Shown here piece after piece: positions 243 to 20,000 of a stretch of DNA of 20,000 nt. Positions within the stretch are counted from its first letter, which is position 1, and the number at the start of each line of letters is the position of its first letter. This stretch comes from an uncultured virus (IMG/VR IMGVR_UViG_3300025000_000080) (taxonomy: Duplodnaviria > Heunggongvirae > Uroviricota > Caudoviricetes): the IMG/VR virus record IMGVR_UViG_3300025000_000080, positions 53,188 through 73,187 of that record; one strand, written 5' to 3'. The translations under genes were made by a program, and so were the position numbers. Under the pieces are notes generated by a model. It was given only the letters and a program-made list of their open reading frames with translations. It did no database searches and was not told where the DNA came from.

Positions 243-550
243 GGACTTTTAAAATACTCTTTTACTTTTAAGCAGAGAATTATCTACCAACTGGGTGGAG
301 ATATTCGAGATAGCGAAATCTAATGGACAGCCAGATACCACTATGGCATGATCAAACGCAGTAGCCATTTCCTGCAGACGCTGCCGCTCATGCCGCTCTA
401 GCACCAACAATACTCGCCCGCACCCGTAGCATTTCCCGTAGCAGTGACACCTGATTCGGGACAGTAATCAGTAGCAATACGCTAACGCGACTCACTTGTA
501 AGCCTGCGAAAGATCGAAACAAGTGCTGTAATAGTCCAGTGTGCTTTCCC

Positions 551-594
551 GATTCGTAATCAGCAGGTCGCCGGTTCGAATCCGGCCTTCGGCT
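551..594 (+). mobile_element. att core (attP-like): 3' half of tRNA-Thr(CGT)
   Basis: GATTCGTAATCAGCAGGTC-GCCGG-TTCGAAT-CCGGC-CTTCGGC-T gives an anticodon loop (CGT), T-arm and 3' acceptor strand. No D-arm or 5' acceptor strand upstream. Lies 90 nt before the integrase. Confidence 0.85.
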
Positions 595-684: not shown

Positions 685-1785
685 ATGGGCACTACCAAGC
701 AGGGTAAGCGACTCCCACCGGGGATAATCGAGCGAGTCTACCCTACCGGACGGAAGGTCTACCGGGTCGAAGTCCGGATCAAGGGGTATGCACCCCAGGT
801 GAAAACCTTCGACCGCCTCCAGGACGCTAAATACTGGCAGGACACGACCAAGGCGGTCATTAGAGAAGAGAGGCTCAGACCCGATGTTGTGGCCCAGAGT
901 CGCACCGTGGCAGACCTGATCGACCGGTATATAGACGAGGTGCTTCCCAATAGGCCGAAGAGCGCCCGGGACACTGAGCGAGAGCTCTTCTGGTGGAAGG
1001 CGCAACTGGGAGATGTAGCGTTGCCAGATGTCGCTGCCACCATGCTTACCCAGGCTCGAGACGATCTTGCACGAGGACTGACTCCCCGCGGTCAGGTCCG
1101 GACACCTGCCACGGTCAACCGGTACCTGGCTGCACTCAGTACCGCGTTCACCGCTGCAGTCAAGGACTGGGGATGGATGGATGCCAACCCGATGGTCAAG
1201 GTCCGAAAGCAGCGTGAACCTCGAGGCCGAACCCGGTTTTTGACCGACTCCGAGCGGGCACAGTTACTCGAGGCGGCGAAGCGTCAGAACCCGGCTATGT
1301 ACCCGGTAGCAGTCCTGCTCATCTACACCGGTTGCCGGCTGTCCGAGATCATGGGCCTGCGCTGGGAACAGGTGGATATCGAGCACCGTCACCTGGTACT
1401 GCGCGAGGGGACGACTAAGAACAGCGAACCTCGCTACGTCCCCCTAGCTGCACCTGCGCTGGGCGCAATCCGAGACTGGACGAACCATCACCGGCTACTC
1501 GGTGTGGATCTGCTCTTCCCTAGTACGATCGACACCTGTAAACCCCTGGACCTAAAGCGAGCTTGGGACGCATGCATCCGCGAGACTGGGTTACAGGGCG
1601 TCACCCGGCACACGCTCAGACACACAGCCGCCAGCTACCTGATCATGTCCGGCGCCAGCCTCGCCGACGTGGCTGCTATTCTGGGTCACAAGTCCCTCCA
1701 GATGACCATGCGCTACTCCCATCTGTTAAACGCGCACAAGCAGGAGATCGTGGACCGCATGGCTGAGAAGTTCCCCTCCAAGTAA
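685..1785 (+). CDS. int: Tyrosine recombinase / phage integrase
   Basis: RBS GGGAGGT. Catalytic motifs TGCRLSEI (R), TTKN (K), HTLRH (HxxR), LGH and RYSH (Y). Core-binding segment TPATVNRYLAALS. Confidence 0.96.
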   Translation: MGTTKQGKRLPPGIIERVYPTGRKVYRVEVRIKGYAPQVKTFDRLQDAKYWQDTTKAVIREERLRPDVVAQSRTVADLIDRYIDEVLPNRPKSARDTERELFWWKAQLGDVALPDVAATMLTQARDDLARGLTPRGQVRTPATVNRYLAALSTAFTAAVKDWGWMDANPMVKVRKQREPRGRTRFLTDSERAQLLEAAKRQNPAMYPVAVLLIYTGCRLSEIMGLRWEQVDIEHRHLVLREGTTKNSEPRYVPLAAPALGAIRDWTNHHRLLGVDLLFPSTIDTCKPLDLKRAWDACIRETGLQGVTRHTLRHTAASYLIMSGASLADVAAILGHKSLQMTMRYSHLLNAHKQEIVDRMAEKFPSK

Positions 1786-7254: not shown

Positions 7255-7737
7255 ATGTTCAAGCCAGGTTCGCTCGAGGTCCCTTCCCCTACTGCCACCA
7301 GCCACACCTTCGAATGTGGTCATCATGTCGAGTTCACCAGCAATAGCGCCCGTCGTTCGTTCGAGGACTCGCCCAGATGTCCCCGGTGCTGGTCGTCACG
7401 TCCGACCGTACACCTGAAACTGACGACGACTCACCGGCATTACTCGTTTGAGCATCGCTGGTGGACCACTGTCGAGGCGGACGTGTTGCACACCTGTAAG
7501 CAGGGCTTCGCGACCGAGGATGCTACGGTAGAAGCCGTTAACGACTCCGTGCAGGCCATCCTGACCGATCTTCACCTTTTGGTCCCTGAGCCTGGTATAC
7601 GTGACTTCCTAGCCGATCCCACGCTACTACAGCGCTTCCAGGCCGCAATCGACCGCATCTTTTCGCTGGACGTCCATCTATGGGTGGGCGGAAAGTGGCT
7701 GGAGCGGGTAGGTATGCAAGCGGGGTGGCGGTCGTAG
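7255..7737 (+). CDS. Hypothetical protein with possible N-terminal Zn ribbon
   Basis: GGAGGT RBS; ECGH...CPRC. Confidence 0.65.
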   Translation: MFKPGSLEVPSPTATSHTFECGHHVEFTSNSARRSFEDSPRCPRCWSSRPTVHLKLTTTHRHYSFEHRWWTTVEADVLHTCKQGFATEDATVEAVNDSVQAILTDLHLLVPEPGIRDFLADPTLLQRFQAAIDRIFSLDVHLWVGGKWLERVGMQAGWRS

Positions 7738-7739
7738 GT

Positions 7740-8810
7740 CTACCAGCGGGCCAAGATCTCGTTGTCCGGGTGCCATCGCTTCAAAATGGCAATGGTTTCC
7801 GGCATGTGATTCTTGAGCAGCCACAGCGCCGGGTCCGGCTCGACGGGCACGTTCATTTCCAGACACCAGCCCAGCCGCCCGAGTTGAACACCCGCCGTCA
7901 GGATATGAACCTCGTGCAGCAGTTCGGCACGATGGAGTGCTCGAGTGACGAACTGCTCCGTCAGAACGGATAATTCTCTCAGAACGGGTACATTCAGATC
8001 ATGCACGTTGACCGGCTTATTGGGGACGGCGACCACCGGGGAGTCTTGGACCGGCGTCAACTCCACATACTCTGGTTCGGACTGAATTATCGACATGTCG
8101 GGCTCGAGTTCAGCCACAGCGTTGATTACGCCGGTCGACGTCGGCAGATCTTGACCATCGGGCGTGTACATGTGGGGCCAGAGGTACTGGGGCTGCTCAC
8201 CGAGGAATTCGGCCACCTTCCGACGTGCGGTACGAAGGCTCCGGCTTGTGTTCATCCCGGACAGTGTTTTGATCGGGATATCGAGACACTCCGAGAGTCC
8301 TCGCCATGTCGCGATACCGTGTTCCTTCATCGCCTGTGTCACTTTGGGATTTCCTGCCATCACTACTCTCCTTTTCTGCTTCTGCTCATCACGTTCACGC
8401 TTGAATGCCAGCCGCGTGGGTTCACACTCGGCTTTGCACTCCTCCACATCAAGAATCTTCACCTTCTTGTCGAGCTCGGCGCGCTTTTTTGCTACACCAG
8501 CCCGAAGTTTTTCGGCTACAGTTGTATCAGGCTGCTCTCGTTCTTCCTGGGGAATTTTGTCCAGAGGATCGGGCTCAGCGAACACCGGGTTTCTGACCGC
8601 CCTGGCGTCCTCATGAGACTGCACTTCTTCAACCCATTCGCGGACGATAGAGAGGGCAGCAGCAGGCGAGTCAACCGAAGTGCTGACAGGAGAGCCATCT
8701 ATCCGACAGACCCGCATATCACCCCGTCTGCGCTCGATAAAAGCCACCTTCCGCGATCCGTAGTAGTAGACTCCGTCTGACTCCACAATAAGCCTTGCCA
8801 CATCTCCCAT
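7740..8810 (-). CDS. Multidomain protein with central Ner/XRE-like HTH
   Basis: VTQAMKEHGIATWRGLSECLDIPIKTLS...RKVAEFLGEQPQYLWPHMY resembles Ner/Nlp-type HTH; start overlaps the dpdA stop. Confidence 0.6.
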   Translation of the reverse strand: MGDVARLIVESDGVYYYGSRKVAFIERRRGDMRVCRIDGSPVSTSVDSPAAALSIVREWVEEVQSHEDARAVRNPVFAEPDPLDKIPQEEREQPDTTVAEKLRAGVAKKRAELDKKVKILDVEECKAECEPTRLAFKRERDEQKQKRRVVMAGNPKVTQAMKEHGIATWRGLSECLDIPIKTLSGMNTSRSLRTARRKVAEFLGEQPQYLWPHMYTPDGQDLPTSTGVINAVAELEPDMSIIQSEPEYVELTPVQDSPVVAVPNKPVNVHDLNVPVLRELSVLTEQFVTRALHRAELLHEVHILTAGVQLGRLGWCLEMNVPVEPDPALWLLKNHMPETIAILKRWHPDNEILARW

Positions 8811-9757
8811 TAGAACAGCCCCATCTGAACCTGGCTCTCACCATGCTCAATTGAATCCAGCACATACCGCCGCCACATCAGCGCCCACTCAAGACAATTC
8901 GCGCAGTTCTGATGAGTGGCTATTGGGTCATGGCACAGCCGATGAGTAAACGCCTGTCCGTTGGCGATAGCTGCCCGTCGAGCTTCGAACGACCACGCCA
9001 GACTGTCGGCACTAGTCATAGAAGCCGCTGCCATCTTCAAGCCCAGTTGCTTGAAGCCGAAGCCGTGAAGACGTATGCCTTCTCGAGCAAGGGACTCCAT
9101 AATCCCGGCTGCTTCATACGTTCCCTGGCGCCGGCAAACACTTCCCACACCCACCACTTTGAACTTCCTCAGATCGATTCCAGCCTTGTCGTACATCTCA
9201 AGATGTCGGAAATACGACCAGAGGGACCACCCTTGGATGACCGGTGCCCACGGCAGATCTGGTGCCATGGAGGAAAGTTCAAGGTACGATGCAATCGTCC
9301 GCTTCTGGTGTTCTTCCGTGGACAGACCTGTCTTCTCTCTGATTCGAGGCTCACACATCCAGTCCTGAATAGCAGCCCAGTCAAGACCGCCAATCTCCTC
9401 TGCACAGATCCGGACTTCTTCCACGTACTGTCGAGCGGGTACCGTCCATTTACCGTGCAGATCAAGTTCCTGAAATCCACCAGAGTCCAGCGCCCAGCGA
9501 GTGACAGCACGCCGCCACGGCTTGCGACTTTTGACCGGCAAGACGCACCCGTCCCCATCTACTGCAACGGGAACCCATCGCCCCGATGCGTCGAGGCGCA
9601 TATCAATACGGATGACTCGGGAGTCAGGTGCTTGTGGGCCTTTTAATTTAGAAAGTCGCAACGGATTCAGTGTTCTCCGGCTGACGAACAAGGGAACACC
9701 AATCAGTCGTTGGTCGAACAGCCATCCCGTCTGATGAGTCCCCAGGTAAAACCTCAT
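8810..9757 (-). CDS. dpdA: DpdA-like 7-deazaguanine DNA transglycosylase (TGT fold)
   Basis: TGT-family motifs LDSGGF, QDWMCE, PVIQGW, GVGSVCRR, LHGFG and SADS, plus a C-terminal C..H..CxxC metal site. Confidence 0.8.
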   Translation of the reverse strand: MRFYLGTHQTGWLFDQRLIGVPLFVSRRTLNPLRLSKLKGPQAPDSRVIRIDMRLDASGRWVPVAVDGDGCVLPVKSRKPWRRAVTRWALDSGGFQELDLHGKWTVPARQYVEEVRICAEEIGGLDWAAIQDWMCEPRIREKTGLSTEEHQKRTIASYLELSSMAPDLPWAPVIQGWSLWSYFRHLEMYDKAGIDLRKFKVVGVGSVCRRQGTYEAAGIMESLAREGIRLHGFGFKQLGLKMAAASMTSADSLAWSFEARRAAIANGQAFTHRLCHDPIATHQNCANCLEWALMWRRYVLDSIEHGESQVQMGLF

Positions 9758-9902
9758 CCCTCACCACCTTCCGCGCCAAGTCCGCTATCCTGATCAGCCG
9801 CCAGTCGGGTGACATCCTGCCGTCACCTGCGATCATCTCTATCGACACAAGTAGCGCCAGCACCCGCTGCAACTCGTCCACAATCGCTTGCATATCCATC
9901 AA
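9648..9902 (-). CDS. Hypothetical protein (84 aa)
   Basis: Fills the gap in the operon but overlaps dpdA by 110 nt. Confidence 0.4.
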   Translation of the reverse strand: MMDMQAIVDELQRVLALLVSIEMIAGDGRMSPDWRLIRIADLARKVVRDEVLPGDSSDGMAVRPTTDWCSLVRQPENTESVATF

Positions 9903-10339
9903 TAGTCAGCCTTGTAGATGAACCCGGTGGGAAGCAGTTCAGCCCACACACGAGCCTCGGCGCGGGCCAGAAACACTGGAGGTTCCAATCCTTCAGTAAC
10001 GGTGCCCGACACGCGCACATGCGACGACGGAAGTTCATATTCCACCAGTTCCACATACTCGCACGGATCGACGGCAGCCAGATACTCTCGAGCGTTGACA
10101 CTCTGATACAATGGCCAGAGATCCTGACGATCAGTGTAGTAGTGTTCAGCGACTTCCTCCATCGAATGGAACCCGCCTTTCACATCAGGTTCATCGACGA
10201 ATTGTTCCTGAAGGCCCTGCCACGCCGCGTCAATCGACGGCGCAACGATGTAGTTACCGAACCATTTGAACAGCCTGTCACCCTTCAATTGTTGCCTCCC
10301 TTCATGTGGCGTGCATAGACCTATTGATGATGACCACAC
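9899..10339 (-). CDS. Hypothetical acidic protein
   Basis: ORF tiling the operon; start uncertain. Confidence 0.6.
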   Translation of the reverse strand: MWSSSIGLCTPHEGRQQLKGDRLFKWFGNYIVAPSIDAAWQGLQEQFVDEPDVKGGFHSMEEVAEHYYTDRQDLWPLYQSVNAREYLAAVDPCEYVELVEYELPSSHVRVSGTVTEGLEPPVFLARAEARVWAELLPTGFIYKADY

Positions 10340-10950
10340 CTCTTGATACGGTTGTGAAGGCGTGTGGAGATCGGATAGCGCCGCTGCCCTTTTAGAAGGC
10401 TTTCCTGGTCCTTACTCTCCTGCAACGCCTTCAGGTATTGTGCAGAAAGATCGTCCCACGCGGCGACGAGCTTGCCCCACACCGGATGATCGGCCAGTCT
10501 GGCAAAAGCGAGTTCCTTTACTTTTGGAATCTGCTCCACCAGTCGATAACATCGCCCGAAGTCGCTGGCATCGTGAGGCCATGGCGCACTCAGGCGAAGT
10601 CTCGCAACCCACGCCGTATCGTCCAGTGCAGTGGCAGCCAGATACTCAGAGGAGATGCCGTGATCACCACTGCGATACCAGGATAAAACCTTTGTGCCCA
10701 ACTCGCTGTTGGGAATGCCGGCCAGCGTGGTTTTCTCATGGTCGATCTGCATATGGGTTGTCCAAAGCACTCGCCCATTGAGTTGGATTCTGATCCATCC
10801 GCATCGCCGTAAAAGTGTCATCTCTTCTGGCGTCAAGTCAGGGTCACACTCCACTCCATCCGGACCATATCCGGGGTCTGAAATGCCTGCACGCTCACAC
10901 GCCTTTGCCAGCACATCAATACCGTCAGTGAAATCATCGAGATACATCAT
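10321..10950 (-). CDS. Hypothetical phage-type protein
   Basis: 209 aa, GGGAG RBS. The W..SGDHGISS...PHDASDFGRC segment looks like a recurring phage motif (from recall, unverified). Confidence 0.7.
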   Translation of the reverse strand: MMYLDDFTDGIDVLAKACERAGISDPGYGPDGVECDPDLTPEEMTLLRRCGWIRIQLNGRVLWTTHMQIDHEKTTLAGIPNSELGTKVLSWYRSGDHGISSEYLAATALDDTAWVARLRLSAPWPHDASDFGRCYRLVEQIPKVKELAFARLADHPVWGKLVAAWDDLSAQYLKALQESKDQESLLKGQRRYPISTRLHNRIKRCGHHQ

Positions 10951-10952
10951 TT

Positions 10953-11534
10953 CTATTTACTCCCATCTATAACTCCCCACCCAACATCCATCGCAGGCGG
11001 ATCGGGCGGACGACGAACAGGGACAACGAGGCACCCGCCCGTCACCAACATCAACTCGACGTAGTATTGCCAGTGCTTCGACCTTTGAATGGGTCGCCAC
11101 TTGCCAGGCTGGCCTAGTCCAAGTATTGTCCACGAATCCCACTGCCCCGGACCCGTACCGAACCACTCCGGTTGTGGCGGTCGAGGCGTACAGGCGTCGT
11201 CAAGGTCATCAATACACCGCAGGATCTGTCCCTGCTCTTCTGCCGAGATGAACGGTTCTGCATTGCGCTTCACACGCTCGAGCCACTGGTCAAGAACGGT
11301 CTTCACTGCATGCCTCATGATCCTGGGGTCTTCGATTACAGCCGCGTCCAACTGAGATGAATCGGGAGGCACGGAACCAAACAGGCCCAGACTTGAAGAT
11401 GCCCTGGCTGACGTCGCCAGGATGCACCGACCCAAAAGTCCTCCAACTTCCACTCCATCGACAGGCGGACCACTCGTAGATGAGAAGCCCACTCCTTCTT
11501 GGCTAACACCTTCATGCCAATACTCCTCACTCAA
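10953..11534 (-). CDS. Hypothetical protein (193 aa)
   Basis: Start overlaps the upstream stop (GTGA). Confidence 0.6.
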   Translation of the reverse strand: MSEEYWHEGVSQEGVGFSSTSGPPVDGVEVGGLLGRCILATSARASSSLGLFGSVPPDSSQLDAAVIEDPRIMRHAVKTVLDQWLERVKRNAEPFISAEEQGQILRCIDDLDDACTPRPPQPEWFGTGPGQWDSWTILGLGQPGKWRPIQRSKHWQYYVELMLVTGGCLVVPVRRPPDPPAMDVGWGVIDGSK

Positions 11535-11764
11535 AGACTCGCCACACGGCGACGAAGACGAGACAAGACATCCTTACGACGGTGACCGCTCACATGAATT
11601 TCTTGCCCACAGACTGTGACGACCGCTTGATATCCCTGCTGGCGATGACGTTCACGCCTGACCGTGCCAATGAGGTTGCTGCCGTCCATCACGGGCCAAC
11701 TTGCACCACGCTGACGCGGCGAGACACCTGGCTCAATCTCCACATGCTTCGTTCCGAGTCTCAT
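11531..11764 (-). CDS. Hypothetical basic protein (77 aa)
   Basis: GGAGG RBS, ATG 11764 (MRLGTKHVEI...). Confidence 0.6.
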   Translation of the reverse strand: MRLGTKHVEIEPGVSPRQRGASWPVMDGSNLIGTVRRERHRQQGYQAVVTVCGQEIHVSGHRRKDVLSRLRRRVASL

Positions 11765-12011
11765 GATGTCCTCCACTTTGAGTGACGCTCGCAATCGCTT
11801 CACGCTTGCCCCCGAAGTGATCGGGGGCGCACCGCTCGCAGTACCACTCGGCGCAGTAGTAGCACCGATAGATGGATAGAGTAGGAGGGACCCAGCCACA
11901 CCCACACCGGACAGGTTCACCGCGAAAGACAGCCCTGACTTGTCGGGCTACCCGTTCACGCTTCTGAAGTAGCTCAGCCTCAGTCTTTGGGGCATCGTGA
12001 CGGTTCACCAC
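11733..12011 (-). CDS. Small Cys/His-rich (Zn-finger-like) protein
   Basis: CGC...CYYC....CERC...H; GGAG RBS before GTG 12011. Confidence 0.6.
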   Translation of the reverse strand: MVNRHDAPKTEAELLQKRERVARQVRAVFRGEPVRCGCGWVPPTLSIYRCYYCAEWYCERCAPDHFGGKREAIASVTQSGGHHETRNEACGD

Positions 12012-12639
12012 GTTTCCACTCCTGCCACATGTCTTCGACATCGCCCCTGGTCACGATGTCGGCGTAATCGAAATTACACACCAGTGCGCGCTCTTCATCC
12101 CATGAGATTACCCACGGATGTGGAATGACTGGTCCTCCGAACTTGGGCCAGCGCACCCTGCGACCACCACTGGGAAGGCGTGTAGATGGATGGTTCTCCT
12201 TGATGAGCGTCAACAGGTCCTCGAGCGACTGTGCAGCGTTCACGCCTTCCCGTTGATCGAACCAGTCTTTAACGATGGGCGCCATCTCCTGAATCTCATG
12301 GATAGCCTGTTGGATGGTCAAACCTGTGAGCGTCCAGCATGCCTGTGTACGGTCGAAGTCGTCACGCTCGGCATAAATCTCAAAATAGGTAGGGGTCCTC
12401 TCGTTACCCGGCCCTCGAGGCTGTGATAGTCGAGCCGTCCAGCCGTACTCTAATTGAGTGCAGTACTGGGCGCGCGGTCTCCAGTCCTTCATAATGACAA
12501 GGGTGACGGGGTCTTTGATGGAGCAATGTTCGAGGTCAAGGACGGCTATGTCGCCAGGGTTGTCTATCGCGACATAGCCGGGTGGGTAATTGGGGGTAGT
12601 CAGGACATGCATACTCGTCACAGCCTCCACAGTAGCCAT
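11980..12639 (-). CDS. Hypothetical protein (219 aa), probably leaderless
   Basis: ATG 5 nt downstream of a TATACT -10 box. Confidence 0.7.
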   Translation of the reverse strand: MATVEAVTSMHVLTTPNYPPGYVAIDNPGDIAVLDLEHCSIKDPVTLVIMKDWRPRAQYCTQLEYGWTARLSQPRGPGNERTPTYFEIYAERDDFDRTQACWTLTGLTIQQAIHEIQEMAPIVKDWFDQREGVNAAQSLEDLLTLIKENHPSTRLPSGGRRVRWPKFGGPVIPHPWVISWDEERALVCNFDYADIVTRGDVEDMWQEWKRGEPSRCPKD

Positions 12640-12644
12640 GACTC

Positions 12645-12673
12645 AGTATATAGGTGATCGACGTACTAATCAA
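12645..12673 (-). promoter_or_regulatory. sigma70-type promoter
   Basis: cctgTTGATT-17 nt-TATACT. Confidence 0.75.
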
Positions 12674-12697
12674 CAGGTATTTTAATGTATCGCTGGA

Positions 12698-13258
12698 CTA
12701 CTCGGAGTCTTCCCGGTCGTCATCATTGGTGGGCTCGTCCTGGAATAGCGGCGCCCCTTCCGGGCGTGTCCATGATCGGCTGTAACCCTGGCCCTTGAAC
12801 AGGCCCGCCAACCCGGTCATCTGCTTGAGCCGAAGCACCTCCTCTGCCTCCATCCCCAACTGCTTCGCGATGTCGGTGTCGCTCCAGCCGAGTTTGAGAA
12901 GCTTCTCGACAAGGACAGACATCATGTCTACCTTGTGCTTGCCACGAGCTCGATTATGCCGAATGGTGGAGGCCATGCGGTCATTGATGGACTTGTCGAT
13001 CACCACCACCGGGATCTCTGGACACTTGAACCTCTTTGTCAGGATGGTGTACCGGTGGAAGCCATCCACCACCACATACAGATCCAGGACCGGATCATAA
13101 ACAACAACGATGGGCTGAGTAACTCCATCCTCTTCGATGGAGAGGGCAAGCAGGTCCATCTCTGGCGTTGCCACGTTGTTAGGGTTGTAGTCGTTGGATA
13201 CCACCTTAACAGCAGTAACCATCTGCACATGGCAACAAGGGAATGTGATCTGGCTCAT
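12698..13258 (-). CDS. IbrB/YbdM-like ParB/Srx-fold protein (copy 2)
   Basis: NDYNPN, GVTQPIVV, VVDGFHR, STIRHNRARGKH; ATGA overlap with the upstream stop. Confidence 0.88.
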   Translation of the reverse strand: MSQITFPCCHVQMVTAVKVVSNDYNPNNVATPEMDLLALSIEEDGVTQPIVVVYDPVLDLYVVVDGFHRYTILTKRFKCPEIPVVVIDKSINDRMASTIRHNRARGKHKVDMMSVLVEKLLKLGWSDTDIAKQLGMEAEEVLRLKQMTGLAGLFKGQGYSRSWTRPEGAPLFQDEPTNDDDREDSE

Positions 13259-14334
13259 AGGATGTCCATCCACTTCAGTAATGGGTTCGGCCGATCCGGC
13301 TGCTGGACCACCGGGATGTTGTTCTCCCAATCGTTCAGCAGGAGCTGGCGGACCTGCTGCCGGAACACGGATTCGCTCTGGAGTTGATTTCCGAACCGCT
13401 CGAGAAATTGTTGTCGTCTCTCGTTCGGAAGCGTCTCGAGTAAAAAGTCTCGGTACGCTCGCCAGGATGAGAACTGCGCTGGCCGTTTCTTCGTGCTGAA
13501 CACCATCTGCTCTCGACTGTACAGAGCAGCTGTGTGCACACCCTTTAGCCTGCGAATGAGCGCATCGTATGTATCGGGCTCGAACTCCTGAAGGTCAGCC
13601 AGGCTCTTGAACGCACGCTCATGAATGAGGTTGGAGACCCGAAGATCTCCGATGTTTCGCCCCTTGGCCCACATCCAGTCATAGACGCGGTTGTAGACCG
13701 GTCCCTCGTTGCCGATGAACGTCCAGATGTCCTCGAACGTCCAGTCGTAGAGAGGGTAGAACTTAATGCTCTTCCCGCCGCCAGGAGACGACCAGTTGAT
13801 GCCTGGAATGGCAGGATGACGGGTCACAGCGCCAAACCGATTTAGACTCTCTTCGGCCCGAAGACCGACAAGACACGCTGTGTTCTCAGGCCACTGGGCT
13901 TCCCACCAGTCGAAGAACGAGTAGAATCGATCTGGTGCATCCGGGAGTTCATGGATGGAGTCGGGCTCCTTCGGCCTGACCCATTCCTCACCCGGTCCCC
14001 AGGCATACAAGAACTCGTCCTCATAGGATGTGGCGTTCGTCATTCGGATGGGGACCTGTACCCAGTGTGCCTTTACAGCCGGGCGAGTCATGATGTACCG
14101 CATGACTTCAACCGTGGAACGGTACTCAACTTCCTGGTCGAGAAAGAAAACGTGAATCACCCGTCCACGTCTCTCGGCCTCACGCCGTGCCAGTTCGACC
14201 AGCACGGAACTATCCTTTCCTCCCGAGACGGAGACACAGACGTTCTCGTAATGGTCGAATATCCAGGCTATACGCTCAATAGCGGCCTCGAGAACGTTCT
14301 TGGGTAGGTAGAGTTTGCACCCATTCGGGATCAC
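13255..14334 (-). CDS. IbrA/YbdN-like PAPS-reductase-family PP-loop protein (copy 2)
   Basis: SVSGGKDS, FLDQE, GLRAEESLNR, YPLYDW, RVSNLIHE; GGAGGAG RBS and GTGA overlap. Confidence 0.88.
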   Translation of the reverse strand: MIPNGCKLYLPKNVLEAAIERIAWIFDHYENVCVSVSGGKDSSVLVELARREAERRGRVIHVFFLDQEVEYRSTVEVMRYIMTRPAVKAHWVQVPIRMTNATSYEDEFLYAWGPGEEWVRPKEPDSIHELPDAPDRFYSFFDWWEAQWPENTACLVGLRAEESLNRFGAVTRHPAIPGINWSSPGGGKSIKFYPLYDWTFEDIWTFIGNEGPVYNRVYDWMWAKGRNIGDLRVSNLIHERAFKSLADLQEFEPDTYDALIRRLKGVHTAALYSREQMVFSTKKRPAQFSSWRAYRDFLLETLPNERRQQFLERFGNQLQSESVFRQQVRQLLLNDWENNIPVVQQPDRPNPLLKWMDIL

Positions 14335-14837
14335 GTCTCCTCCATGGTCCATGCCGTGGACCATGTGGCATTGGCAAAGAGAGCCGCTATTCCGGTCAGT
14401 GACTTGTAGCGGTGGATGGTTTCCATCTCGATACTGAGATGCAAAGAGATCTCTTCCTCGCTCATGCCCTGTTCGATGAGCGCCCGGATCAGGTCGGCGT
14501 CAAGATCTACCTGGTGGACCCCACGTGCCTTGTTGAATTGGACTGTCGCGGCCATCCGCTGGGCAACAGACACAGCGATGACTACGATCGGAACCTCCGG
14601 CAAGTCTAGCCATTCGGGGCCGGCAATCGTCCAACGGTGGAAGCCATCGACCACACGATAAACGTCTTCGTCCGAATCATGAACCGTCACAATAGGGAAA
14701 CACCAACCATTATCGATGATGGACTGCATGAGTAGCCGCATCTTGTCCGAACTCACGTGGTTGGGATTCCAGTTGTTAGCCACGACGCGGACACGTGGCA
14801 CCATGAAGGTATTGAGACACGGGAAGAGAATCTTCAC
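14331..14837 (-). CDS. IbrB/YbdM-like ParB/Srx-fold protein (copy 1)
   Basis: NNWNPN, GWCFPIVT, VVDGFHR, TVQFNKARGVH. Confidence 0.88.
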   Translation of the reverse strand: MKILFPCLNTFMVPRVRVVANNWNPNHVSSDKMRLLMQSIIDNGWCFPIVTVHDSDEDVYRVVDGFHRWTIAGPEWLDLPEVPIVVIAVSVAQRMAATVQFNKARGVHQVDLDADLIRALIEQGMSEEEISLHLSIEMETIHRYKSLTGIAALFANATWSTAWTMEET

Positions 14838-15961
14838 AGCACCCTCCGATAGTATTCGATCAACTCTTCACGTGGGTCTGGCTTGTTGTCCACATGAAGG
14901 TTGTTTTCGTAGTCGTTGAGTACCAGTTGTCGGCACTGCTGCCTGGCCACGTACTCGTTATCTAGTTGTCGGGCAAAACGCCGCTCGAAGGTCGGCTTGT
15001 GGTCGGCTACCGGGTAGGTTTCAAGCAGGAAGTTCCGGTAAACGCGCCAGGATGTGAAGTTCTTCGGCAACTTCCGACACTTCATCATCTTGGCGTTCTT
15101 GCCGGTCTCCTGAGCGAACTGGATGCCCTTGATGCGTTTGCACAGCCGGTCGTAGGTCTTCGGCTCAAACTCCGGGAGTTCTACAAGACTTTTGAAGGAG
15201 CGCTCGTGAATGAGGCTCGAAACGCGCATCTCTGAAATGCCGAATCCCTTCTTGAACTGCCAGTCATAGACGCGGGAGTAACGCAATCCGTTGATCGCAA
15301 TGTACTTCCACACGTCGCTGAAGTTCCAGTCGTAGATGGGGTAGAAGGCGATATTTCGCCCCTTCTGAGTGCCCCAGTAGACATCCTGACCTGCCACCGT
15401 GACCGGGTTCTTGGTGACGGCGCGCCACCGGTTGGGGGACTCGCCAGCAGCTCGTAGGCCGACCAGAAAAACTGTGTTCTCATAGCAGGCTTCGAAGTTG
15501 TCGATCACGCCGTAGAAATCCAGCCAGGAATAACCTGTTCGGAATTTAGGAGGCCCAGCCCATGGAGGAGCCTTAATATTCCCCTCCCCTTTGGAACGCA
15601 TCCAGATCTTGTGTTTGCCTGGCTCCCATGCCTGTAACTGGCTCTCTGTCAAACTGGTGGCATTGGTCAGGTAGAACGGCACCTGAAGCCATAGGCGATT
15701 ACAGTTCTCCGGGAACAGGCTCATCAGGTATTCGACCTGGTCCACAGAACTCTGGTACATGGCCTCCTCGTCGAGTAGGAACAGGCCCACCTTGCGCCCG
15801 CGTCGATATGCCTCGAGCAGCGCCAGATGAGCAAGCACCGTCGAGTCCTTCCCTCCACTGATAGAAACGTGGATTGTCTCGTAGTGATCGAAGAGAAAGG
15901 CGATGCGCTCCCTGGCAGCTTCCAAAACCGTCTTATCGCTGTATCGCTGAATAGCAGGCAT
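14834..15961 (-). CDS. IbrA/YbdN-like PAPS-reductase-family PP-loop protein (copy 1)
   Basis: SISGGKDS, LLDEE, GLRAAGESPNR, YPIYDW, RVSSLIHE. Confidence 0.88.
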   Translation of the reverse strand: MPAIQRYSDKTVLEAARERIAFLFDHYETIHVSISGGKDSTVLAHLALLEAYRRGRKVGLFLLDEEAMYQSSVDQVEYLMSLFPENCNRLWLQVPFYLTNATSLTESQLQAWEPGKHKIWMRSKGEGNIKAPPWAGPPKFRTGYSWLDFYGVIDNFEACYENTVFLVGLRAAGESPNRWRAVTKNPVTVAGQDVYWGTQKGRNIAFYPIYDWNFSDVWKYIAINGLRYSRVYDWQFKKGFGISEMRVSSLIHERSFKSLVELPEFEPKTYDRLCKRIKGIQFAQETGKNAKMMKCRKLPKNFTSWRVYRNFLLETYPVADHKPTFERRFARQLDNEYVARQQCRQLVLNDYENNLHVDNKPDPREELIEYYRRVL

Positions 15962-16799
15962 CCAACTTATCCCTCCAATCCGTATACCGTTGCAGATACC
16001 ACTGATCTACCGGCAGGTCCGTGCTGAGTACATCAAATCGGTCCTGGCCCGTCGTCCAAAGGAAGTCGGTGAAGTCGATGTATCGATGGCACCACTCGAA
16101 GATGGCGTATTCCCGCCCGGGCTGGGCGTTTTCATAGGTGGTCAGGCTGGGCTCGTTGAAACGCCCGTTACGACAGACGTACTGCCTCGAAGGATCCATA
16201 GCACCCAACTTGGGCCGGCCGGTAAACAGGTGCAGGTTGCGTGGTAGCGTGTGGGGGTCACTGGCACCCAGGTTGGCGAACAGCCGCTCCTTCTCGGCCA
16301 GGTAGCGGGCACGGAACGAGGGCGACACGCGGACGTCGGTGTTGCTGAACTCGAGCCGTCGAGGTGCCACCTCCAGCCGTGCTTCCTCGAGCGGCAGGTC
16401 CGCGAACTTCGACCGCTTCCACCGGCTCTGAGTGTCAAAGTCGAAGAGGATACTGAAGTCCTCTGCGGTGTCGATCAGCGGTAGGTATTGGAACACCAGT
16501 ACATGCCCGGCCTGGTTCAAAAAGTGGCGGATGCAATTATAGGTCAGGTCGTGCCGGTTCTGCGTCCGCAGGCACTCGTTGACTACAACCAGCGTCCGTT
16601 TGTCTATCTCCTGCAGAAGCCTATAGAAGTAAGCGTATTGGATGACTTGTTCATAAGTCACCACTTCGTAGCGACTGTGAGCGCAGGGAAACTCTCTGCC
16701 AATCGTCGAGATGATAACCACGCGGTTGATATCCTCGCGCTGGCAGAGTTCCCCGACCACGCGAGATTTCGAGGCGGTGTCGAGTCCGATGTGGATCAC
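15933..16799 (-). CDS. Hypothetical protein resembling a degenerate SNF2/SF2 N-terminal lobe
   Basis: VVTYE, LVVVNECLRTQN and LVFQYLPLID align by eye to SNF2 motifs Ib, II and III; GTGA overlap start. Confidence 0.55.
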   Translation of the reverse strand: MIHIGLDTASKSRVVGELCQREDINRVVIISTIGREFPCAHSRYEVVTYEQVIQYAYFYRLLQEIDKRTLVVVNECLRTQNRHDLTYNCIRHFLNQAGHVLVFQYLPLIDTAEDFSILFDFDTQSRWKRSKFADLPLEEARLEVAPRRLEFSNTDVRVSPSFRARYLAEKERLFANLGASDPHTLPRNLHLFTGRPKLGAMDPSRQYVCRNGRFNEPSLTTYENAQPGREYAIFEWCHRYIDFTDFLWTTGQDRFDVLSTDLPVDQWYLQRYTDWRDKLDACYSAIQR

Positions 16800-17146
16800 G
16801 GCTTCACCCACCAGGAACTGATTCTATTCCCTCTTCCCTGGAGTATGAATCCGGCGGCAGAGAACGCCCGCTGAGAAGCCTCGTTGGTGTCCTCGATCAG
16901 GGCGCGCGCCTTTTTACCTTTCGTCACTGATGCGACAAAGGCGCTGCAATAGCCCTTGCCGCGATAGTCCGGATGAACCCATATCGGACCGACGCGGAAA
17001 AAGCCAGACTTATCCACATGTGGGCAGTAAACACCTATCGGGCCCCCGTTGAACTCAAAAACTATGTCCACTTGGGCGATCTTGCGGGCGAAGGACCTCA
17101 AAAAATACTCGCGCCTTATCAAGACCATCCAAGCGTCATGGATCAT
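16796..17146 (-). CDS. GNAT-family acetyltransferase
   Basis: IWVHPDYRGKGY (motif A) and NEASQRAFSAAGF (motif B); GAGGAG RBS. Confidence 0.85.
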   Translation of the reverse strand: MIHDAWMVLIRREYFLRSFARKIAQVDIVFEFNGGPIGVYCPHVDKSGFFRVGPIWVHPDYRGKGYCSAFVASVTKGKKARALIEDTNEASQRAFSAAGFILQGRGNRISSWWVKP

Positions 17147-17789
17147 ACCGCTCCTCAACACGATACCCACGCCGCTCGAGCCATTTCAGCGTGATATCGA
17201 GCCTGTGTTGGGCCAACTCGCTGCCAATCAGATTCCACCCGAGAGCGTGAGCGGCCCGGCTTGTCATGCCCTTGCCGACGCATGGTTCGACGACCCACGA
17301 GCCGACAGGTGCCCATACACCTACGCATGCGCGCAGAGTCATCTCATCCTCCGACATCCCGGTCGGGTCGGTATGCAGGTCACGCATACCGAAGTGGAAC
17401 AGGGCATTCGGTCTTCCCGAATAGATGACCTCGTATCTGCGACGAAGAGGCATGAGCACCACATTGCGCTCGAGCGCCCGTAGCAGGTAATCGCTGTGCG
17501 CCTCATTGATCGACTGCTCAATGAGTAGGTCAAAGGCGCCGCGCTCCACCGCGAGCCCGACCACAGAGATGAATGCATCGAGAAACCGGTCGTATGACGG
17601 GCAAGGGGCCATCTGCGCATGCGTGCGCCAGTAGGTGGCATTTCCGGGATTCCACGGCGGGTCCGAGTATACCAGTCGTACCCGAGGCGGCATCAACCTG
17701 CGGTAATCCTCTATCGTCTGCGGGTCCTCCAGATCCCGACACATCAGGATCTGCGTGCAGTCGCGGAACGTGCATCTGTAATACATCAC
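17136..17789 (-). CDS. Small SAM-dependent amino-methyltransferase (beta-class DNA MTase-like)
   Basis: Motif IV VYSDPPW is N-terminal; motif I VVEPCVGKGMT and IGSEL are C-terminal. Confidence 0.75.
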   Translation of the reverse strand: MMYYRCTFRDCTQILMCRDLEDPQTIEDYRRLMPPRVRLVYSDPPWNPGNATYWRTHAQMAPCPSYDRFLDAFISVVGLAVERGAFDLLIEQSINEAHSDYLLRALERNVVLMPLRRRYEVIYSGRPNALFHFGMRDLHTDPTGMSEDEMTLRACVGVWAPVGSWVVEPCVGKGMTSRAAHALGWNLIGSELAQHRLDITLKWLERRGYRVEERYDP

Positions 17790-18079
17790 TCATCCCTCGT
17801 AAATCGCTCAGCCATCTCTCTGGTCTCAAACACGCCGGCATTATGCCCCTGCCGGTACTCTGTGATCGCCTCTTCAGTGTTCTCGGCATCCGCAAACGGA
17901 AAGCCGGGAATCGGAATGACGCACCCATCGCCCAATCCTGGGATGGTCGAGTAATCGAAGTCGACCCCGTCAACCTGCTCGACGATCCCATGGAAACCAA
18001 TCGCTTCGATGGTCTCCTCAATCTCCAACCGAAGATTATCCGGCAGAAGGGCCACTGCGCGTACAACAAGAAAACGCAT
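17786..18079 (-). CDS. Hypothetical acidic protein (97 aa)
   Basis: GAGGT RBS; coupled to its neighbours. Confidence 0.65.
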   Translation of the reverse strand: MRFLVVRAVALLPDNLRLEIEETIEAIGFHGIVEQVDGVDFDYSTIPGLGDGCVIPIPGFPFADAENTEEAITEYRQGHNAGVFETREMAERFTRDE

Positions 18080-18082
18080 ACC

Positions 18083-18247
18083 TCACCTCTGCCAGTCATC
18101 GTACCACCGGACCATCAGGGAGAACTCAGGTAGACCCCTCTCACGCTCGATCTTACGAGCCATCCGTTCGGCCACGTCAAACTTGACGTGGTAGTAATAT
18201 ATGCTCCCCGACGACGTCTCGATGTACCATGCTCCTTTTTCTCTCAT
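18083..18247 (-). CDS. Hypothetical protein (54 aa)
   Basis: TGATG overlap with the HTH gene (MREKGAWYIE...). Confidence 0.55.
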   Translation of the reverse strand: MREKGAWYIETSSGSIYYYHVKFDVAERMARKIERERGLPEFSLMVRWYDDWQR

Positions 18248-18447
18248 CACGTTTCCTTCCTGTGACTGCATACCTGTTTCGGCTGCCGGCGTCCCTTGCC
18301 CCGAGGTCTCAGCACATACTCTTCGAGGCACAAGGGGCACACATCCCAGTCCCGAGGGGGAACGGCACCGAGCACGCCGCGTTTACACATGTCCTGCACG
18401 ACTCGGATCGACGTCCCGAGTCGTGCCGCAACTTCTTGAACCGTCAT
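18247..18447 (-). CDS. Excisionase-like HTH_17 DNA-binding protein
   Basis: MTVQEVAARLGTSIRVVQDMCKRGVLGA...W pattern. Confidence 0.75.
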   Translation of the reverse strand: MTVQEVAARLGTSIRVVQDMCKRGVLGAVPPRDWDVCPLCLEEYVLRPRGKGRRQPKQVCSHRKET

Positions 18448-18450
18448 GGC

Positions 18451-18612
18451 CTAGTCTCTCGTAATCACCAACAAGTGACGAACCGGGATACCCGCGCAAC
18501 TCAACCTGCTGGCATTGAGACAGAATGTCCTCCAGTCGCGGATAGAATTAAGGTGAGGATACTTCGCGACATAGGCGAACCTGGCCGCATGCTGTTCCTG
18601 TGACAACATCAT
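18451..18612 (-). CDS. Hypothetical protein (53 aa, not in the ORF track)
   Basis: Own translation MMLSQEQHAARFAYVAKYPHL...ITRD*; exactly fills the gap after the GNAT stop; GGAGG RBS. Confidence 0.45.
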   Translation of the reverse strand: MMLSQEQHAARFAYVAKYPHLNSIRDWRTFCLNASRLSCAGIPVRHLLVITRD

Positions 18613-19029
18613 TCATTCCTCCAGTTTGAGTTCCATCGGGACCACCGTCCCAAACTTCCCTGTGGCCTTGAACCCCAGCGCCTCGAGCACCGGAACACTC
18701 GAGGCGAACGCCTTGATCCGGATTACCTTGACGCCCTTGGAGCGCATGAAATCGATCCGCTCGCTCACCAGTCGACTATACAGCCCGGCACCGGCATACG
18801 GCTGCATGACGAAGATCCCGTGAAGGTGACCGGTCGTGCCGACTATGTGACAGGCGCCTCCACCGGCCACCTTGTCACCATCCAGACCGAGGAACCAGAT
18901 ATAGCCCTCATCGTCGTGCAGATGGGGGAACTCCTTCCGGTACGCACGACCTGCAAAGACCGGTCCCATCAAGGACCAGAACCGAGGGGACCGACCTTCG
19001 AAGCGCTCAATCTTAATCTGGGTGGCCAT
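18613..19029 (-). CDS. GNAT-family acetyltransferase
   Basis: LHGIFVMQPYAGAGLYSRL (motif A-like) and SVPVLEALGFK (motif B); GGAG RBS. Confidence 0.8.
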   Translation of the reverse strand: MATQIKIERFEGRSPRFWSLMGPVFAGRAYRKEFPHLHDDEGYIWFLGLDGDKVAGGGACHIVGTTGHLHGIFVMQPYAGAGLYSRLVSERIDFMRSKGVKVIRIKAFASSVPVLEALGFKATGKFGTVVPMELKLEE

Positions 19030-19061
19030 GATGTATCTCCGATGTGATGTGGTATGGCTTA

Positions 19062-19090
19062 AATATACGCTTACGTATATTCGGCGTCAA
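19062..19090 (-). promoter_or_regulatory. sigma70 promoter overlapping a palindromic operator
   Basis: cctgTTGACG-17 nt-TATATT; perfect inverted repeat AATATACG-N4-CGTATATT at 19062-19081. Confidence 0.8.
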
Positions 19091-19097
19091 CAGGAAA

Positions 19098-20000
19098 TCA
19101 CACCGAAGCGACCAACTCAGCGAATTTTTTTTCGTCCTTCATCTCGCGAAGTTTCTTGACCTCACGTCGGAATGACTGGACCACACCTTGTTTGGTGGCC
19201 AGTGCATCCATGATTCGGAGATCAATGCCAGCGTTGCAGATGATGTCGATAATCGTGACCGGCATATCCTGCCCGATCCGGTAGTTGCGATCAGCGGCTT
19301 GCTTCCTCTCGCTGTATTTGAACCCGTTGTTGTAGAACACCATGAATCGGGCATCGTTGACTGTAAGACCGCGCCCGCCACTGGACGGGGTAGCAACGAG
19401 GAACCGGGCAGGACCACGGAAGCGCTCGAGTTCTTCATCTCGTGTCGCCGCGTTCTTACCGCAGAACAGAGAGACCTGGCTTGCTCCGTAGTGAGCGTTT
19501 AAGGCGCCCATAATCCCCTGTACGTCGTAGTCGAACTTGGCCCAGATGATCACCTTCTCATCGCCTGGAATCCGCGCCAGCACGTCCTGAAGCACCTCCA
19601 GACGATAGTGTGGCAGATCGATGTGCTCCATTTCGGGACGGTCGCGCCGGTTCTCTCGCGGTGGCCGTCGATTCCAGAAGCCACAGACGATCTGCTGGAG
19701 CGCCGTGAACAGCCGGAAGATGACCCACGAGTTCATCTCGTCCGGGTCCACGTCCATCAGGAGTTCATACTTCGCCTGCTGATACGTCATCTCCTGTTGT
19801 GGTGTCATTCCGAAATATCTCGTCTCGTACAATTTCTTGGGCAAGGTCAGACATTCGTCCTTCGTCACCTGATAGGTGAACGGCGCAATCTTCGCCGCGA
19901 TGTATCCGGTGTTGAGCGACCGAACGATCAAACCCGGGTACTTCTCACTGTACTCAAGATGATTCGCGGCAAAGCTGTAGAATGACCGATACCCGAGGAG
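19098..20000 (-). CDS. SNF2-family helicase/ATPase, C-terminal part (5' end outside the window)
   Basis: CLTLPKK, EKVIIWAKF, FLVATPSSGGRGLT and QAADRNYRIGQ (motifs IV-VI); frame open to position 20000. Confidence 0.9.
   Translation of the reverse strand, partial: LLGYRSFYSFAANHLEYSEKYPGLIVRSLNTGYIAAKIAPFTYQVTKDECLTLPKKLYETRYFGMTPQQEMTYQQAKYELLMDVDPDEMNSWVIFRLFTALQQIVCGFWNRRPPRENRRDRPEMEHIDLPHYRLEVLQDVLARIPGDEKVIIWAKFDYDVQGIMGALNAHYGASQVSLFCGKNAATRDEELERFRGPARFLVATPSSGGRGLTVNDARFMVFYNNGFKYSERKQAADRNYRIGQDMPVTIIDIICNAGIDLRIMDALATKQGVVQSFRREVKKLREMKDEKKFAELVASV

Follow-up and report, generated by a model that had tools for sequence, protein, structure and literature searches.

What does the gene pair ibrA–ibrB do when it is embedded in a long run of putative DNA-acting enzymes? 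This question is raised by a 20,000-nucleotide stretch of DNA (hereafter the window) from an uncultured tailed virus, IMG/VR record IMGVR_UViG_3300025000_000080, in which a minus-strand operon between positions 12,698 and 19,090 encodes two GNAT proteins, small open reading frames (ORFs) including a helix-turn-helix (HTH) protein, an amino-methyltransferase (MTase), a degenerate SNF2-like protein of 292 aa (X292) and two consecutive IbrA–IbrB pairs. A first-pass annotation, made from the letters alone, had read this run, together with a SNF2 helicase gene directly upstream and a dpdA gene downstream, as a candidate DNA-modification system built from paired components, and all of the genes that it named were found in place on the minus strand. 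We found that the operon holds a real, conserved multi-enzyme phage system, of which it is the most elaborate variant among the loci compared. We consider it likely that this system acts on DNA, and we put even chances on its being a covalent modifier of DNA.

To compare the operon with its relatives, X292 loci were collected by a pattern scan derived from the alignment, which gave 30 foreign viral loci, and from 185,579 species genomes, which gave 12 more (42 in total), and the neighbouring genes were found by phmmer with the window proteins as queries. The 12 genome loci belong to Chloroflexota, methanotrophic Gammaproteobacteria, Acidobacteria, Bacteroidota (one isolate, Bergeyella porcorum), Desulfobulbales and Myxococcota and lie mostly on short contigs of metagenome-assembled genomes (MAGs), and, taken together, the 42 loci come from viral contigs and from genomes that span six phyla or more. 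X292 is directly followed by IbrA at every one of the 38 loci that extend for 1150 bp or more, and IbrB is present in all 37 with 1800 bp; four loci end too early for this count. All related loci keep this core order, far more than chance would give. The conservation of the neighbourhood, which the first-pass annotation had named as its check, is thus positive for X292–IbrA–IbrB, with the MTase, the upstream SNF2 and small GNATs as recurrent accessories.

These accessories always abut the core. The small MTase is present at 24 of the 42 loci by phmmer and at 27 foreign loci by clustering, and an active SNF2 lies upstream at 21 loci, abutting X292 in eight. Relatives of a 396-aa protein, u396, were found at 13 loci, usually before SNF2. 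A small GNAT abuts the module at eight loci (six by Pfam, and L029 and L034 by phmmer to GNAT2), and the order MTase-GNAT2-X292-IbrA-IbrB is repeated at L029 and L034. Further recurrent neighbours are a short PAPS-reductase-only protein (PAPS, 3′-phosphoadenosine 5′-phosphosulfate) at 11 loci and, instead of SNF2 at 13 loci, an unnamed upstream set (c13-c5-c7) that has no Pfam family. GNAT1, the HTH protein and the small ORFs of the operon had no relatives at the 42 loci by phmmer, and they drop out as conserved parts of the run. At three viral loci, Cas6-like and CRISPR_assoc domains were seen in ORFs adjoining the module (L029:4660-6534, L030:6136-7020 and L036:13598-14182).

X292 was then characterized as the protein that defines these loci. 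Its sequence matched nothing in Pfam, PHROG, NCBIfam or PADLOC, including the SNF2-rel_dom and Helicase_C families, while 658 relatives near full length were found at E <= 0.001 in a collection clustered at 90%, and clustering at 50% left 215 representatives (195 at 1e-10), nearly all of 280-300 aa and unnamed. An alignment of 26 sequences revealed the invariant blocks GLDxxxK, VVNECLRTQNRxDLTYNC, DFDTxSxWKR, DPHTxPRN and GRNNRF. The AlphaFold model of X292 (predicted local distance difference test (pLDDT) 87.3, predicted template modelling score 0.81) matched INO80, ISWI and Chd1 in Foldseek with E values from 5e-8 to 1e-5, and VIA, which is independent of Foldseek, aligned 284 of 292 residues with CSB at Z 17.1 and a root-mean-square deviation of 4.0, followed by SWR1 (Z 16.9) and INO80 (Z 16.7). 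The comparison of X292 with the true SNF2 family of the operon by hhalign was weak (probability 19%, E 0.0012) and was used for motif register only; it places VVNEC of X292 on Walker B VDES and QYLP on motif III TGTP. X292 lacks both the Walker A GxGK[ST] and the motif II DExx signatures and has instead GLDxxxK, in which x is variable and often charged, and its motif VI-like GRNNRF is invariant. Taken together, the model identifies X292 as a degenerate protein with the Snf2 two-lobe fold, and the "degenerate SNF2-like" label of the first-pass annotation is borne out by Foldseek, by VIA and by the motif register.

X292 has the two-lobe Snf2 core known from Snf2-family remodellers, and for DndH an inactive Snf2-type domain at the N-terminus is described as a DNA binder (PMC10853773). 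In contrast to Snf2 remodellers and the DndH domain, X292 keeps both lobes within 288 aa and has invariant motifs of its own (DLTYNC, DPHTxPRN and GRNNRF), and, unlike the inactive domain of DndH, it is a separate protein dedicated to IbrA.

The SNF2 gene upstream of the operon is cut by the end of the window, and its full-length form was found in a sister record (G001) of the same phage. The complete protein has 478 aa, with SNF2-rel_dom at 52.4 bits and Helicase_C at 38.2 bits, and the Walker A GxGK (G31, G33 and K34), D127 and E128, and the motif VI residues R416, R419, G421 and Q422 are invariant in 13 relatives; by these intact sequence motifs it is of the active type. In the sister record, the gene is preceded by that of u396, which matched no Pfam family and only unnamed clusters in a protein atlas. 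In the single proteins P0184 (752 aa) and P0206 (787 aa), SNF2-rel_dom and Helicase_C are followed by an X292 domain, and P0201 (1144 aa) is a fusion of u396, SNF2 and X292. The N-terminal part of P0184 is 36% identical to the SNF2 of this phage (E 1e-79), the first 376 residues of P0201 match u396 (E 6e-31), and u396–SNF2 fusions also occur at L033 and L040. Given these natural fusions, the window-cut SNF2 belongs to the system, as the first-pass annotation had supposed, despite the seven ORFs and the promoter-like site that now lie between SNF2 and X292.

The relation between X292 and IbrA was further assessed by a complex prediction of X292 with IbrA1 and IbrB1, which scored 0.73 (0.71-0.74 in three runs) as compared with 0.00 in all three controls. 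Of 157 solved complexes, 116 reach the mark used for such scores, as do 2 of 215 mismatched pairs; this calibration is only rough here, where the model used its own alignments and three chains. The runs share at least 67% of contacts, with partner pLDDT of at least 83. In the modelled interface, the last helix of IbrA1 (364-375; consensus PDPREELIxYYxEVL) would pack against residues 174-193 and 267-271 of X292, where the X292 side takes in the invariant DPHTxPRN block and W271, with P186, P190, L193 and W271 as invariant residues. Confident contacts were modelled between X292 and IbrA1 only. The prediction supports binding of the conserved IbrA C-terminal tail by X292, at the motif that is best conserved in X292.

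The two IbrAs of the operon scored above the Pfam cut-offs for both PAPS_reduct and DUF3440, and the ParB_N scores of the two IbrBs were 24.2 bits, just under the cut-off of 26.3, and 26.8 bits. In 26 IbrA sequences, the PP-loop SGGKDS (S33, S35, G36, G37, K38, D39 and S40) is invariant, and no cysteine is present among the invariant or nearly invariant columns. The IbrA model (pLDDT 78.5) is nearest in fold to CysH, the PAPS domain of FAD synthase / FMN adenylyltransferase, and CysD, with E values from 6e-7 to 1e-4. In IbrB, D64, G65, H67 and R68 (DGxHR) are invariant and an N-terminal Pro-Cys is nearly so, and by sequence its closest relatives of solved structure are Noc, ParB and the kinase SbnI. 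The ibrA and ibrB genes overlap by 4 nt. At three related loci of the collection, a gene for an Rv2179c-like 3'-5' exonuclease (176-180 bits) stands between ibrA and ibrB (L017:8304-8843, L046:4257-4796 and L047:2971-3510).

The two pairs are of different subtypes. From other phyla, 24 X292-linked orthologues share 54-70% identity with IbrA1, whose identity to IbrA2 is 46%, with 44% between IbrB1 and IbrB2; in view of these values, a recent duplication as the source of the second pair was dropped. Relatives of IbrA2 were found at 60 foreign viral loci, many of them near-identical, where an IbrB2-type partner is present and X292 is absent, and IbrA2 is matched by 223 of 50,697 cultured-phage records. 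Extras occur at some of the IbrA2-type loci, namely u396–SNF2 (L059 and L110), the MTase (L063 and L108), a GNAT2-like gene (L062 and L063) and, immediately upstream at L067-L071, a weak SNF2-like ORF. The operon thus joins two IbrAB subtypes, each drawing on the same accessory set. The "paired components" of the first-pass annotation are therefore a local joining of two IbrAB subtypes, along with two GNATs unrelated to each other in sequence, and not a design principle. Two arrangements seen elsewhere may be mentioned here. L041 and L042 have a tandem X292-IbrA-IbrB-X292-IbrA-IbrB, with the second X292 shortened to 239-264 aa, and in cultured phages (Flavobacterium phage FCL-2, NC_027125.1, 5340-7009, L057) the pair is in the reverse order, IbrB-IbrA, between the terminase and portal genes and after an unnamed 403-aa gene.

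The MTase was compared with 24 relatives, in which D43, P44 and P45 are invariant and W46 is nearly so, and D168, C170, G172 and G174 follow further along the chain. Its profile matched DpnA (5e-9), CcrM (1e-8), MboIIA and RsrI over motif I only, and DNA N6-adenine MTases appear by sequence to be its nearest kin. A relative at L021 scored 35.3 bits with N6_N4_Mtase. The window MTase belongs to a subfamily placed upstream, and another subfamily is found downstream of IbrB. At L040:11776-12192, a gene for S-adenosylmethionine decarboxylase (AdoMet_dc, 96 bits) directly follows the module MTase and is a possible source of an aminopropyl donor.

GNAT-fold proteins that act on DNA have a precedent in Mom of phage Mu, an adenine carbamoylmethyl transferase, which is a model for GNATs in a DNA-marking operon. 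However, neither GNAT1 nor GNAT2 matched the Mom family PF25680 in Pfam, and the phage has a separate Mom-family gene (PF25680, 80.4 bits) 27 kb away.

Inspection of start and stop codons showed that the genes of the minus-strand run overlap by a few bases or are separated by 0-3 nt, and Shine-Dalgarno-like sequences precede many of them (Table 1). The only two gaps are 68 nt past the SNF2 stop and 58 nt past IbrB2. The first-pass annotation had one promoter heading the run; the highest-scoring promoter-like site of positions 7500-20000 does sit in the 68-nt gap, but such sites number 9 in the region against 6.4 +/- 2.5 in shuffles, which as a set is not above chance. A candidate promoter at 19062-19090 is therefore plausible from its sequence.

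Table 1 Features of the operon and its surroundings in the window, in the order of transcription
Feature	Coordinates	Strand	Evidence and remarks
SNF2 helicase, C-terminal 300 aa (5' end beyond window)	19098..20000	-	Helicase_C 38.6 bits; phrog_62
Promoter-like site TTGACG-17-TATATT	19062..19090	-	in 68-nt SNF2/GNAT1 gap; consensus match only, 10/12
GNAT1, 138 aa, local accessory	18613..19029	-	Acetyltransf_1 41.7 bits, cut-off 20.7
53-aa ORF	18451..18612	-	no family (Pfam, PHROG, NCBIfam)
66-aa HTH_17 / excisionase-type DNA-binding protein	18247..18447	-	HTH_17 26.2 bits, E 1e-5; TIGR01764 excise domain E 1e-4
Small ORF, 54-85 aa by start choice	18083..18340	-	no family; ATG at 18247 with Shine-Dalgarno-like GGAAGGA
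97-aa ORF	17786..18079	-	no family (Pfam, PHROG)
Beta-class amino-methyltransferase, 217 aa, DPPW motif IV before motif I	17136..17789	-	N6_N4_Mtase-like 19.8 bits, cut-off 26.7
GNAT2, 124 aa	16796..17170	-	Acetyltransf_1 25.8 bits, cut-off 20.7; likely start ATG 17146
X292, predicted minimal two-lobe Snf2-fold protein	15933..16811	-	292 aa; likely start GTG 16799 = 288 aa
IbrA1, PP-loop PAPS-reductase-fold + DUF3440, X292-linked subtype	14834..15961	-	39.2 + 37.3 bits; phrog_2302 270 bits
IbrB1, ParB/Srx fold, DGFHR motif	14331..14837	-	ParB_N; phrog_2159 150 bits
IbrA2, PAPS_reduct + DUF3440, other subtype	13255..14364	-	55.7 + 49.4 bits; phrog_2302 309.7 bits; likely start GTG 14334
IbrB2	12698..13330	-	ParB_N; phrog_2159 215 bits; likely start ATG 13258
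Second promoter-like site TTGATT-17-TATACT	12645..12673	-	in 58-nt gap after IbrB2; marks operon end; 9/12
dpdA, outside the system	8810..9757	-	PF23859 231.8 bits; phrog_1279 260.6 bits

Based on these results, we favour an explanation in which a complex tracks along DNA and IbrA activates a DNA oxygen, with optional tailoring enzymes; taken as a whole, it stands about as good a chance of being right as of being wrong. The core complex on DNA would consist of the active SNF2 translocase, its zinc-ribbon partner of 396 aa, X292, IbrA and IbrB. X292 would be the adaptor that holds the C-terminal tail of IbrA, and the complex would be carried along the DNA. IbrA may move AMP from ATP onto a DNA oxygen, of a phosphate or a base substituent, in the way that CysD and FMN adenylyltransferase act on sulfate and phosphate, and IbrB may provide DNA binding, nicking or a priming phosphorylation, like ParB/Srx enzymes. 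This activation of a DNA oxygen is proposed because the known chemistry of the two folds is AMP transfer to an oxyanion and nucleoside triphosphate (NTP)-dependent DNA clamping, nicking and phosphoryl transfer. The activated group could then be replaced or kept as a mark, the DPPW MTase and the GNATs would serve as optional tailoring or second-mark enzymes, and the two IbrAB subtypes in one transcription unit might give two marks or two specificities. Such a system would serve to shield phage DNA from host nucleases or to control its expression. In its boldest form, that of a new class of DNA-tracking modifier in which SNF2 is linked via X292 to an AMP-transferring IbrA with IbrB, and a non-sulfur mark is tailored by the MTase and GNATs, with two subtypes for two marks, we hold the proposal to be doubtful.

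A close known parallel is offered by the Dnd/Ssp systems, in which a ParB-fold DGxHR protein is likewise paired with a PAPS-reductase-fold PP-loop ATPase and works with an ATPase on DNA. PMC12839542 places ParB-like DndB with PP-loop DndC in DNA phosphorothioation, and ParB-like DpdB with DpdA. The first-pass annotation had named DndC/SspD-type PP-loop proteins, but IbrA has no invariant cysteine and falls far under the DndC model TIGR03183 of NCBIfam: IbrA2 reaches 22.1 bits against a cut-off of 290.4, and IbrA1 is not listed. Because IbrA is without conserved cysteines such as an Fe-S cluster would need, Dnd-like sulfur chemistry is unlikely, and a sulfur or phosphorothioate product was dropped. 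No DndA, DndD, DndE or SspA-C partners were recognized among the 22 window ORFs by Pfam, NCBIfam or PADLOC. A true DndC lies elsewhere in the same phage: the full-length gene at G001 66038-67558 (minus strand; L010:9038-10558) scored 597.5 bits with TIGR03183, and Pfam recognized no DndB, DndD or DndE beside it, as would be the case for a solitary phage-borne phosphorothioation enzyme.

Several observations weigh against the DNA-tracking explanation. The missing cysteine takes away the best-known DNA chemistry of the IbrA fold, X292 has no canonical Walker A and an N in place of D in motif II and may not be a motor, and the complex is a prediction for which contacts with IbrA alone were reported. 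The MTase is missing at 18 of the 42 loci and GNATs at 34, so that neither is obligatory, and the loci are not independent, since they include close kin such as L041/L042/L044, L017/L046/L047 and L015/L045. The X292 family is absent from 50,697 cultured-phage records by tblastn, and no X292-type isolate is at hand; no modified nucleoside, enzymatic activity or phenotype is known for any member. In addition, the one genetic finding known for the family, reportedly by Sandt et al. 2002, is activation of prophage eib genes by E. coli IbrAB, which a regulatory role would explain equally well.

This last point bears on the rival that survives best, namely that the module is a regulator. The E. coli ECOR-9 IbrAB island, YbdN/YbdM of K-12 and lmo1309-1311 of Listeria share with our operon the same two families, overlapping genes and a phage or prophage setting. 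The Listeria monocytogenes trio is listed as IbrB, IbrA and SNF2, ybdNM is listed as an operon repressed by YbdO, and SEED labels IbrA/IbrB as "coactivators of prophage gene expression". On the chemistry of IbrA, IbrB, YbdN or YbdM, no paper was found in a literature search whose coverage left out most subscription journals. Compared with these known systems, however, the phage adds tandem subtypes, a Walker-A-less Snf2-fold adaptor, a second, active SNF2 with its 396-aa partner and, in the same unit, two GNATs together with the small DPPW MTase. GNATs, a DNA-type amino-MTase and a PP-loop protein whose SGGKDS is invariant are enzymes and atypical for regulators, and in other phages the module adjoins terminase and portal genes rather than regulators. 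We therefore judge a purely regulatory role to be unlikely.

Somewhat harder to sustain is a restriction-modification-like defence against rival phages or plasmids, in which the MTase or IbrA would mark the phage's own DNA, and SNF2 and a ParB-fold nuclease IbrB would cut unmarked DNA. In line with this, the C-terminus of the SNF2 matched the ZorD, DpdE, BrxH and DrmD models of PADLOC (E 3e-15 to 1e-4), ParB-fold domains act as nickases or NTPases in conflict systems (PMC5512222), and the phage is temperate, with the module at variable "moron" places. However, PADLOC on the window ORFs returned generic SNF2, DndC and MTase_II domain matches and no system model, and the MTase is lacking at 18 of the 42 loci. 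Moreover, 12 matches in the 185,579 species genomes, mostly on short MAG contigs, are what a viral system would give and not a cellular defence island.

We find it improbable that IbrA and IbrB make or destroy a small nucleotide, in anti-defence or metabolism at the nucleotide level, with the SNF2 proteins as mere neighbours. The nearest folds of IbrA do act on small molecules (PAPS, FMN and sulfate), and SerK and SbnI of the ParB/Srx group are small-molecule kinases, but natural fusions and a strictly conserved gene order link the pair to DNA proteins of the Snf2 fold, and the docking model likewise connects IbrA with X292.

The weakest alternative is that unrelated phage genes came together by chance, or that the run belongs to a dpdA-centred 7-deazaguanine pathway, which we consider highly improbable since the core order is kept at all loci with room and dpdA does not accompany it. 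The dpdA gene lies 2.9 kb downstream of the operon on the same strand, with a promoter-like site and seven unrelated ORFs between, and the first-pass annotation had tentatively linked the two. DpdA was found within 7-8 kb at none of the 42 X292 loci and none of the 60 IbrA2-type loci, and no module genes were found within 8 kb of DpdA at 10 foreign DpdA loci. Because dpdA never co-occurs with the module, the idea that the operon tailors an installed preQ1 is left unsupported and falls with the link. Dpd systems do offer likenesses: a DpdA gene is also in the window, bacterial Dpd likewise uses ParB-like (DpdB) and SNF2 (DpdE) proteins, and amine tailoring is a known idea. PMC10516641 reports that the DpdA of a phage suffices for the insertion of host preQ0/preQ1 in E. 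coli and that the known tailoring of dPreQ1 is by methyl and formyl groups, added by DpdM (DUF3109) and DpdN (PurN-like). These enzymes are, however, of other families than those of the operon, and the phage is without QueC as a marker of its own preQ0 synthesis, the only match in the 137,577-bp record being the IbrA2 PP-loop at 12.7 bits.

The phage is rich in other candidates for DNA modification. Besides the Mom-family gene, there are a C5 cytosine MTase, a DUF4942 protein with an Erm/KsgA-like MTase and a Dam-type D12 MTase, these four lying, in this order, at G001 63010-63816 (-), G001 44960-46582 (+), G001 79701-81116 (+) and G000 43250-44266 (-). Counting DpdA, DndC and the operon, at least seven DNA-modification candidates are present in one genome. 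A TnpB/Cas12f-like IS605 OrfB gene was also found inside the genome at G001 30404-32101 (-).

The window is the last 20 kb of the 73,187-bp viral record (G000), and the same sequence occurs in G001, of 137,577 bp. By blastn, G000 26241-73186 corresponds to G001 137577-90632 and G000 1-26366 to G001 26402-7, so that G000 spans both ends of G001 and each record overlaps across the other's ends. The phage genome is therefore circular or circularly permuted, about 137.4 kb long and essentially complete; the records themselves are both classed as linear, and as 54% (G000) and 87% (G001) complete. Baseplate J, gp25, the tail tube gp19, portal and XkdF protease genes are those of a myovirus, an integrase gene (window 685-1785) and a CI-type repressor are temperate features, and the phage encodes its own DnaB, DnaG, sliding clamp, dUTPase and UDG. 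A tRNA-Thr (CGT) gene at window 525-594 (+), 90 nt upstream of the integrase gene, is a possible attP partner or phage tRNA. Among cultured phages, only two short stretches of DNA-level similarity to the operon were found, covering 3% and 1% of 6.4 kb.

IbrA and IbrB are among the commonest unexplained phage enzyme pairs and are routinely mislabelled as sulfur-metabolism genes. The locus and its relatives define an X292-linked parts list for one branch of them, the fusions show an active SNF2 motor to be one of its parts, and the predicted IbrA tail on the DPHTxPRN motif of X292 is a concrete, testable contact. If the product is a DNA mark, the system would represent a new phage DNA-modification chemistry with its own tailoring enzymes; if it is not, the same parts would give a mechanistic handle on the role of the pair in prophage gene activation.

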